From Escherichia coli (GTDB taxonomy: Bacteria > Pseudomonadota > Gammaproteobacteria > Enterobacterales > Enterobacteriaceae), in NCBI RefSeq assembly GCF_003334315.1, contig NZ_QOWR01000106.1: a DNA stretch of 3,030 bases; one strand, written 5' to 3'. Both the position numbers and the translations under genes were made by a program. How positions within the stretch are numbered: the first letter of the stretch is position 1; the number at the start of each line of letters is the position of its first letter. Below, in pieces: positions 1-3,023 of this stretch. Below the pieces are notes generated by a model that saw only the letters and a program-made list of their open reading frames with translations, searched no databases and had not been told where the DNA came from.

Positions 1-11
1 GCCGCCAGGCA
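1..11 (-). rRNA. rrf: 5S ribosomal RNA, 5'-terminal 11 nt only; the gene continues beyond the window start
   Basis: Reverse complement of 1..11 is TGCCTGGCGGC, the canonical 5' end of enterobacterial 5S rRNA. It sits about 93 nt downstream of the 23S 3' end in the transcription direction, the usual rrn operon spacing. Only 11 nt are visible, so the call rests on context. Confidence 0.7.
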
Positions 12-104
12 AATTCTGTTTTATCAGACCGCTTCTGCGTTCTGATTTAATCTGTATCAGGCTGAAAATCTTCTCTCAATCCGCCAAAACACCTTCGGCG
101 TTGT
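12..104 (-). other. 23S-5S internal transcribed spacer (93 nt)
   Basis: Lies between the 23S 3' terminus (..CUUAACCUU, complement of position 105) and the 5S 5' terminus (complement of position 11). No tRNA-like structure is apparent in it. Confidence 0.8.
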
Positions 105-113
105 AAGGTTAAG
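93..113 (-). promoter_or_regulatory. 3' half of the 23S terminal/processing stem (last 9 nt of 23S plus 12 nt of trailer)
   Basis: Plus-strand 93..113 (cttcggcgttgtaaggttaag) is a near-perfect reverse complement of 3004..3023 (cttaacctcacaacccgaag). In the transcript the two 23S ends and their flanks pair into a long duplex, the known RNase III processing substrate for pre-23S. Confidence 0.8.
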
Positions 114-340
114 CCTCACGGTTCATTAGTACCGGTTAGCTCAACGCATCGCTGCGCTTACACACCCGGCCTATCAACGTCGTCGTCTTCAACGTTCCTT
201 CAGGACCCTTAAAGGGTCAGGGAGAACTCATCTCGGGGCAAGTTTCGTGCTTAGATGCTTTCAGCACTTATCTCTTCCGCATTTAGCTACCGGGCAGTGC
301 CATTGGCATGACAACCCGAACACCAGTGATGCGTCCACTC

Positions 341-355
341 CGGTCCTCTCGTACT
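341..355 (-). other. Sarcin-ricin loop (helix 95), elongation-factor binding site
   Basis: Reverse complement of 341..355 is AGTACGAGAGGACCG, the universally conserved SRL motif. Counting from the 3' end places A2660 at window position 349 and G2655 at 354. Confidence 0.9.
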
Positions 356-441
356 AGGAGCAGCCCCCCTCAGTTCTCCAGCGCCCACGGCAGATAGGGA
401 CCGAACTGTCTCACGACGTTCTAAACCCAGCTCGCGTACCA

Positions 442-475
<34 letters not shown>

Positions 476-476
476 A

Positions 477-604
<128 letters not shown>

Positions 605-944
605 AGAACCACCGGATCACTATGACCTGCTTTCGCACCTGCTCGCGCCGTCACGCTCGCAGTCAAGCTGGCTTATGCCATTGCACTAACCTCCTGATGT
701 CCGACCAGGATTAGCCAACCTTCGTGCTCCTCCGTTACTCTTTAGGAGGAGACCGCCCCAGTCAAACTACCCACCAGACACTGTCCGCAACCCGGATCAC
801 GGGTCAACGTTAGAACATCAAACATTAAAGGGTGGTATTTCAAGGTCGGCTCCATGCAGACTGGCGTCCACACTTCAAAGCCTCCCACCTATCCTACACA
901 TCAAGGCTCAATGTTCAGTGTCAAGCTATAGTAAAGGTTCACGG

Positions 945-956
945 GGTCTTTCCGTC
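945..956 (-). other. Macrolide/lincosamide/streptogramin-B binding site (A2058/A2059 region)
   Basis: Reverse complement of 945..956 is GACGGAAAGACC. The A2058 and A2059 equivalents are at 951 and 950 (t on the plus strand, A in the rRNA), i.e. wild-type. Confidence 0.9.
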
Positions 957-1026
957 TTGCCGCGGGTACACTGCATCTTCACAGCGAGTTCAATTTCACT
1001 GAGTCTCGGGTGGAGACAGCCTGGCC

Positions 1027-1124
<98 letters not shown>

Positions 1125-1745
1125 CAAGAGCTTCGCGTTACCGCTAACCCCATCAATTAACCTTCCGGCACCGGGCAGGCGTCACACCGTATACGTCCAC
1201 TTTCGTGTTTGCACAGTGCTGTGTTTTTAATAAACAGTTGCAGCCAGCTGGTATCTTCGACTGATTTCAGCTCCATCCGCAAGGGACTTCACCTACATAT
1301 CAGCGTGCCTTCTCCCGAAGTTACGGCACCATTTTGCCTAGTTCCTTCACCCGAGTTCTCTCAAGCGCCTTGGTATTCTCTACCTGACCACCTGTGTCGG
1401 TTTGGGGTACGATTTGATGTTACCTGATGCTTAGAGGCTTTTCCTGGAAGCAGGGCATTTGTTGCTTCAGCACCGTAGTGCCTCGTCATCACGCCTCAGC
1501 CTTGATTTTCCGGATTTGCCTGGAAAACCAGCCTACACGCTTAAACCGGGACAACCGTCGCCCGGCCAACATAGCCTTCTCCGTCCCCCCTTCGCAGTAA
1601 CACCAAGTACAGGAATATTAACCTGTTTCCCATCGACTACGCCTTTCGGCCTCGCCTTAGGGGTCGACTCACCCTGCCCCGATTAACGTTGGACAGGAAC
1701 CCTTGGTCTTCCGGCGAGCGGGCTTTTCACCCGCTTTATCGTTAC

Positions 1746-1763
1746 TTATGTCAGCATTCGCAC
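1746..1763 (-). other. Cryptic pentapeptide mini-ORF inside 23S rRNA (E-peptide, GTG-CGA-ATG-CTG-ACA-TAA = fMet-Arg-Met-Leu-Thr); not a conventional gene
   Basis: Minus-strand reading of 1763..1746 is GTGCGAATGCTGACATAA, preceded by GGAGG (complement of 1772..1776) 8 nt upstream. It corresponds to canonical 23S positions about 1235-1268. It is silent in intact ribosomes and reported to be translatable only from rRNA fragments. Confidence 0.6.
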
Positions 1764-1920
1764 TTCTGATACCTCCAGCATGCCTCACAGCACACCTTCA
1801 CAGGCTTACAGAACGCTCCCCTACCCAACAACGCATAAGCGTCGCTGCCGCAGCTTCGGTGCATGGTTTAGCCCCGTTACATCTTCCGCGCAGGCCGACT
1901 CGACCAGTGAGCTATTACGC

Positions 1921-1960
<40 letters not shown>

Positions 1961-2003
1961 TGTCTGGGCCTTCCCACATCGTTTCCCACTTAACCATGAC
2001 TTT

Positions 2004-2036
<33 letters not shown>

Positions 2037-3003
2037 CTTCACGACGGACGTTAGCACCCGCCGTGTGTCTCCCGTGATAACATTCTCCGGTATTCGCAGT
2101 TTGCATCGGGTTGGTAAGTCGGGATGACCCCCTTGCCGAAACAGTGCTCTACCCCCGGAGATGAATTCACGAGGCGCTACCTAAATAGCTTTCGGGGAGA
2201 ACCAGCTATCTCCCGGTTTGATTGGCCTTTCACCCCCAGCCACAAGTCATCCGCTAATTTTTCAACATTAGTCGGTTCGGTCCTCCAGTTAGTGTTACCC
2301 AACCTTCAACCTGCCCATGGCTAGATCACCGGGTTTCGGGTCTATACCCTGCAACTTAACGCCCAGTTAAGACTCGGTTTCCCTTCGGCTCCCCTATTCG
2401 GTTAACCTTGCTACAGAATATAAGTCGCTGACCCATTATACAAAAGGTACGCAGTCACACGCCTAAGCGTGCTCCCACTGCTTGTACGTACACGGTTTCA
2501 GGTTCTTTTTCACTCCCCTCGCCGGGGTTCTTTTCGCCTTTCCCTCACGGTACTGGTTCACTATCGGTCAGTCAGGAGTATTTAGCCTTGGAGGATGGTC
2601 CCCCCATATTCAGACAGGATACCACGTGTCCCGCCCTACTCATCGAGCTCACAGCATGTGCATTTTTGTGTACGGGGCTGTCACCCTGTATCGCGCGCCT
2701 TTCCAGACGCTTCCACTAACACACACACTGATTCAGGCTCTGGGCTGCTCCCCGTTCGCTCGCCGCTACTGGGGGAATCTCGGTTGATTTCTTTTCCTCG
2801 GGGTACTTAGATGTTTCAGTTCCCCCGGTTCGCCTCATTAACCTATGGATTCAGTTAATGATAGTGTGTCGAAACACACTGGGTTTCCCCATTCGGAAAT
2901 CGCCGGTTATAACGGTTCATATCACCTTACCGACGCTTATCGCAGATTAGCACGTCCTTCATCGCCTCTGACTGCCAGGGCATCCACCGTGTACGCTTAG
3001 TCG

Positions 3004-3023
3004 CTTAACCTCACAACCCGAAG
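3004..3023 (-). promoter_or_regulatory. 5' half of the 23S terminal/processing stem (first 7 nt of 23S plus 13 nt of leader)
   Basis: Reverse-complementary to 93..113 as described there. Pairing brings the mature 5' and 3' ends of 23S together. Confidence 0.8.

Follow-up and report, generated by a model that had tools for sequence, protein, structure and literature searches.

The stretch of DNA analyzed here, a window of 3030 nt, contains a complete 23S rRNA gene of 2906 nt on the minus strand, at positions 105..3010 (read 3010..105). The gene was recognized by its match to the Rfam bacterial LSU model RF02541, which scores 2874 bits over window 3010..105 against a gathering score of 50 and extends over model positions 1-2925 without truncation. 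Two E. coli chromosomes, those of strains PSS-13 and PEC414, match all 3030 nt of the window at 100% identity. In the E. coli complete-genome collection, 4,317 records have a best match of 99% identity or more, so that the window, flanks included, is nearly identical to annotated E. coli 23S genes. The PSS-13 copy belongs to rrnE, with the order purH, 16S, tRNA-Glu, 23S, 5S, and yjaA, and its PGAP annotation also gives a 23S gene of 2906 nt. The strand and length that had been proposed for this gene from the sequence alone are therefore confirmed by both the full-length Rfam match and an independent annotation.

The gene is preceded in the window by 20 nt of upstream spacer. Downstream, also on the minus strand, lie a 23S-5S spacer (12..104), whose sequence type, on comparison with the MG1655 operons, is that of K-12 rrnA/rrnE, and the initial 11 nt of a 5S rRNA gene (TGCCTGGCGGC, 1..11), which correspond to the rrfB start annotated in MG1655 (locus L001, 3638). 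These 104 nt of spacer and 5S start are identical in MG1655 rrnA and rrnE and differ from those of rrnB, rrnG, rrnD, rrnC, and rrnH. The annotated rrf start in PSS-13 lies a few nucleotides further in than the MG1655 rrfB start.

A two-nucleotide indel relative to most K-12 rrl genes

We aligned the window 23S gene with all seven MG1655 rrl genes (8-way alignment, MAFFT), and the existence of the indel was judged from this alignment, chance statistics not being the relevant test. The rrlB, rrlH, rrlG, rrlD, rrlC, and rrlE genes are each 2904 nt long and rrlA is 2905 nt long; the original prediction had taken 2904 nt as the reference length, which is right for six of the seven K-12 copies but not for rrlA. 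The window gene and rrlB are separated by a single indel, of 2 nt, at rrlB 1869/1870; in the 8-way alignment, these two genes otherwise differ by substitutions only. The eight differing columns consist of the 2-nt indel, two substituted columns at the same tip, and four positions elsewhere (1211, 1723, 1730, and 2211).

This position agrees with what had been deduced from landmark numbering, namely that the extra 2 nt must fall between canonical positions 1067 and 1906 and that an alignment to the seven MG1655 copies should place them at about 1868-1874. The landmarks themselves also bear out the numbering from both ends, as the 11-nt contexts of A1067, A2058, A2451, and A2660 are those of MG1655 rrlB, with an offset of +2 past 1869, and the context of 1915 is likewise identical to rrlB with the +2 offset after the indel. 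The reference string GGGGTTAGCGCAAGCGAAGC, as given in the original prediction, is exact at rrlB 1860-1879. The variant 11-mer, GCGGTAACGCG, occurs once in the gene, at 23S 1867-1877, which corresponds to window 1144..1134 on the minus strand. Its coordinates had been given correctly, but its trailing G (window 1134) lies outside the stem, and the tip proper reads GCG[GUAA]CGC in the window (1144..1135) compared with GC[GCAA]GC in rrlB.

Whether other operons share the indel had been left as a question, and the answer is divided. K-12 rrlA is also long at this site (+2 at helix 68, H68), but with an allele of its own, GCC[GCAA]GGC. This gene has a 1-nt deletion at 1173, with substitutions on either side at 1171 and 1178, and it is because of this one missing base that rrlA is only 2905 nt long despite its +2 tip.

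Structure of the helix 68 tip

Both RNAfold and the Rfam alignment resolve the window tip as the apical hairpin of helix 68, GCG[GUAA]CGC, at 1135..1144 on the minus strand, with the 5' stem at 1144-1142, the GUAA loop at 1141-1138, and the 3' stem at 1137-1135. The loop is closed by the extra pair G1142-C1137 (1137..1142, minus strand; 23S 1869-1874 in this gene's own numbering), and these two bases account for the gene's length of 2906 nt, as opposed to 2904 nt. Tip aside, the distal part of helix 68 (GGGGUUAGCGGUAACGCGAAGC, 1130..1151, minus strand) is identical to that of K-12 rrlB.

The evidence for an added pair comes from the Rfam LSU covariance alignment of window 1040-1260. The consensus there is gc[gcaA]gc, and the additional g and c of the window are aligned as insert states, one before and one after the loop (AGC-g-GUAA-c-GCG); since the two bases are inserted symmetrically around the tetraloop, they amount to one added G-C pair. 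The gap that MAFFT places at window 1141-1140 is an arbitrary placement equivalent to that of Rfam, and the 8-way alignment and the Rfam structural alignment both put the indel at the apex of H68, at rrlB 1869/1870. In RNAfold, the 17-nt window tip forms a 3-bp stem (G-C, C-G, G-C) with a GUAA loop at -4.1 kcal/mol, and the 15-nt K-12 short tip forms a 2-bp stem (G-C, C-G) with a GCAA loop at -1.5 kcal/mol, while the rest of the H68 pairing is the same in the models of both forms. Both tips are thus GNRA hairpins differing by one base pair in stem length, as had been proposed. On prediction and comparison, rather than a solved structure, the extra bases are expected to form a Watson-Crick pair stacked on the stem with the tetraloop kept, and the window hairpin is predicted to be somewhat more stable than the K-12 short form.

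A second polymorphism lies just below the tip. The window has U at 23S U1865 (window 1146), and MG1655 rrlC (locus L005) carries T1865C, which in the RNAfold model turns the U1865-A1877 pair beneath the tip into a C-A mismatch.

Frequency of the tip alleles in E. coli

Allele counts were obtained with 32-nt queries centered on the tip, searched by megablast against 5,426 complete E. coli genomes. The 28-nt exact megablast seed spans the whole hairpin, and each search therefore counts a single allele; the counts are lower bounds, as copies with a nearby SNP are missed. The window allele occupies 12,720 places, distributed over 2,069 of the 5,426 genomes (median, 7 copies per carrier). The K-12 short tip was detected at 8,346 places, in 2,041 genomes, the rrlA long tip GCC[GCAA]GGC at 2,858 places in 796 genomes, and the rrlC form (short tip with T1865C), the commonest single form in E. 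coli, at 13,155 places in 2,733 genomes. Together, the four tip alleles account for 37,079 of 38,112 rrl places (~97%), the total being that of a whole-window search. Plasmid-typed records make up 45 of these 38,112 places and 7 of the places with the window allele.

With ~33% of rrl copies, the window allele ranks among the two commonest in E. coli, and it usually occupies all seven operons of a carrier genome rather than one odd operon. BL21(DE3) carries it at 6 places, and E. coli B is also a carrier. The suggestion that the variant was typical of heterogeneity among rrn operons or strains therefore needs some adjustment: the variant does segregate, but it is not rare, and it is not usually confined to some of a genome's operons.

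These counts also bear on the quality of the sequence. An error of sequencing or assembly could in principle have produced the 2 extra nt, and the small size of the change is the one thing that speaks for it, but the exact 32-nt context recurs at those 12,720 places in 2,069 independent complete genomes, which refutes the idea, and random errors would not give extra bases that are complementary and symmetric about the loop. We give an artifact practically no credence. A degenerate copy or pseudogene was also rejected, given the full-length Rfam match, the identical functional sites, and the presence of the allele in all seven operons of most carriers.

A mosaic of operon-specific polymorphisms

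Outside helix 68, the window gene combines polymorphisms that are distributed among different K-12 operons. The G at rrlB 2211 (23S 2213, window 798) is shared with rrlC, and the T at 23S 1211 (window 1800) is shared with rrlH and rrlA. In the H98 region (window 207-215), the gene follows the rrlB/G/D type, whereas the 23S-5S spacer is of the rrnA/E type. As the substitutions, H98, and the spacer match different operons, the gene is a mosaic of operon-specific K-12 polymorphisms.

A small hairpin at window 1276-1288 (23S 1723-1735), probably the tip of helix 63, has an rrlB-type stem (UCC/GGA) together with the A1723 and U1730 of the rrlH/D/C/A type, a combination that is absent from all seven K-12 copies in the 8-way alignment. 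A search with its exact 32-nt context gave 2,470 places, spread over 628 E. coli genomes (median, 3 per carrier). This allele is therefore less frequent and less homogenized than the H68 tip, a pattern consistent with patchy gene conversion between operons.

H98 also distinguishes rrlE from rrlB, at four positions (2794, 2796, 2799, and 2802) in our alignment, in agreement with the Results of the catalogue of polymorphisms among the seven K-12 operons by Kofman et al. 2024 (PMC11046459). The Methods and Results of that study show a minor inconsistency over rrlE, with no bearing on the H68 tip.

Variation of the tip in relatives

To look beyond E. coli, we used a gapped pattern with conserved H68 flanks on one genome per species, which returned at least 120 loci, mostly from non-enteric Gammaproteobacteria; the sample is one without Shigella, E. 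albertii, E. fergusonii, Salmonella, Citrobacter, and Klebsiella. Among the matches listed (at least 120), the tip is highly variable, with inserts of either 7 nt, giving a 2-bp stem, or 9 nt, giving a 3-bp stem, and with GCAA, GUAA, GAAA, UUCG, UAAC, UUAU, UUAG, CUUG, and other loops. In all 10 distinct long forms among these listed matches, the third pair is Watson-Crick (C-G in 7 and G-C in 3), with both sides changing, and the pair beneath it covaries too (CG, AU, and UA). None of 500 shuffles reached the covariation score observed for the tip in the listed matches, and slid registers all scored far lower; the flanks are uninformative on covariation because the search pattern fixed them.

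Two of these tips come close to that of the window. The 9-mer of Photobacterium lucens (L104), a distant relative among the vibrios, is CGGTAACGC, identical to that of the window, and the tip of Enterobacter cloacae (L020-L022), CGGCAACGC, is one base away from the window allele. The nearness of the Enterobacter cloacae form GCG[GCAA]CGC, together with the mosaic of polymorphisms from different K-12 operons in the window gene, might suggest that the allele did not originate within the species but was acquired by recombination with the 23S DNA of another enterobacterium. On the relatives sampled, we regard such an import as quite improbable. On both sides of the tip the sequence is that of K-12, so that no imported tract is visible, and the identity of the 9-mer in so distant an organism as Photobacterium lucens argues that such tips recur independently.

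Discussion

The tip found in the window is very probably a common, natural, and structure-preserving allele of the helix 68 hairpin in domain IV of 23S rRNA. Under this explanation, one G-C pair would have been added directly under the loop of the short form GC[GCAA]GC, and the second base of the loop would have changed from C to U. The GNRA-capped stem would be kept by these changes, and the rest of helix 68 and all functional landmarks are unaltered. Gene conversion would then have carried the allele to all seven rrn operons of a genome, and the allele now segregates among E. coli lineages. Gene conversion among operons is proposed as the reason that carriers usually have the allele in all seven copies, and this filling of the operons makes it the most likely route of spread. 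Judged by the frequency and structure of the allele, this change at a phylogenetically variable tip is most probably neutral, or close to it.

The length of the tip may nevertheless have a small effect, given that H68 is a dynamic helix linked to movement of the L1 stalk (PMC9040758). In a stronger form of this idea, a longer and stiffer tip would produce a specialized ribosome with altered H68/L1-stalk dynamics or translation yield, and it would have been selected in some lineages. Cimicata et al. 2022 (PMC9040758) describe movement of H68 towards the L1 stalk, and the role of the helix in elongation, where it moves and coordinates the stalk, is in line with this, although the high sequence conservation reported in the same study is near the base of H68. 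In cell-free assays, the ribosome pool made from K-12 operon A alone, with its one-pair-longer tip, was the most productive one (PMC11046459), and the production strain BL21(DE3) has the long GUAA allele at 6 places. The effect in the cell-free assays is one of the whole operon, however, with the H68 change not isolated from other differences, and our alignment shows operons A and B to differ at many further positions. Tip length and loop type also vary freely in the sampled, mostly gammaproteobacterial loci (at least 120), and an allele that usually occupies all seven operons creates no subpopulation of ribosomes within the cell. For these reasons, we consider a selected, specialized ribosome unlikely.

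The more general proposal, that H68 tip length (2-bp or 3-bp) is not neutral and tunes H68/L1-stalk dynamics or ribosome productivity, seems to us very unlikely as well. If it were true, it would explain why lineages are fixed for one form across all seven operons, and it would also explain the good protein production by ribosomes with long tips, as in K-12 operon A and the B strains.

On the preferred reading of a common allele, the variant carries little biological weight: it is frequent, preserves the structure, and affects a helix tip that is variable. A variant of this kind is ordinary and has been described before, and thousands of public genomes, those of laboratory B strains among them, carry exactly this allele. 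Its practical consequences concern numbering, as E. coli 23S positions are shifted by +2 after 1869 in about one third of gene copies, BL21 and the B strains included. This shift matters when resistance or modification sites are mapped and when probes or primers are designed for the H68 tip. The four tip alleles could additionally serve as markers of rrn type and of concerted evolution among operons.

Helix-tip length variation with an intact functional core is also seen in the intervening sequences and expansion segments of 23S rRNA, for example, in helix 25 and helix 45. These elements are tens to hundreds of nucleotides long, and the intervening sequences are excised by RNase III. An element of either kind was ruled out here by size, as the insertion is just 2 nt and makes up a single base pair. 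Diversity of 23S genes in E. coli was reportedly surveyed by Anton et al. 1999, and H68 is not specifically treated by Pei et al. 2009 (PMC2672173).

Several known tips can be compared directly with that of the window. The tip of K-12 rrlB, rrlG, rrlH, rrlD, and rrlE, GC[GCAA]GC, is the usual numbering reference and also the Rfam bacterial LSU consensus hairpin. It shares its helix, flanks, and GNRA loop with the window, but its stem is one pair shorter, its second loop base is C and not U, and the gene is 2904 nt long. The tip of Enterobacter cloacae DSM 26481, GCG[GCAA]CGC, has the same 3-bp stem as the window and differs in having C rather than U as the second loop base, so that it stands, formally, midway from the K-12 short form to the window allele. 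The tip of K-12 MG1655 rrlA resembles that of the window in its site (rrlB 1869/1870), its net gain of 2 nt, and its 3-bp stem under a GNRA loop, and this one-base-pair extension of H68 in rrnA is already in the literature (Kofman et al. 2024, PMC11046459). Three positions separate the two long alleles; two of them are a compensatory flip of the added pair, C-G in rrlA and G-C in the window, with the third in the loop, GCAA in rrlA and GUAA in the window. Within E. coli, the rrlA form is the rarer of the two, at 2,858 places compared with 12,720 for the window allele.
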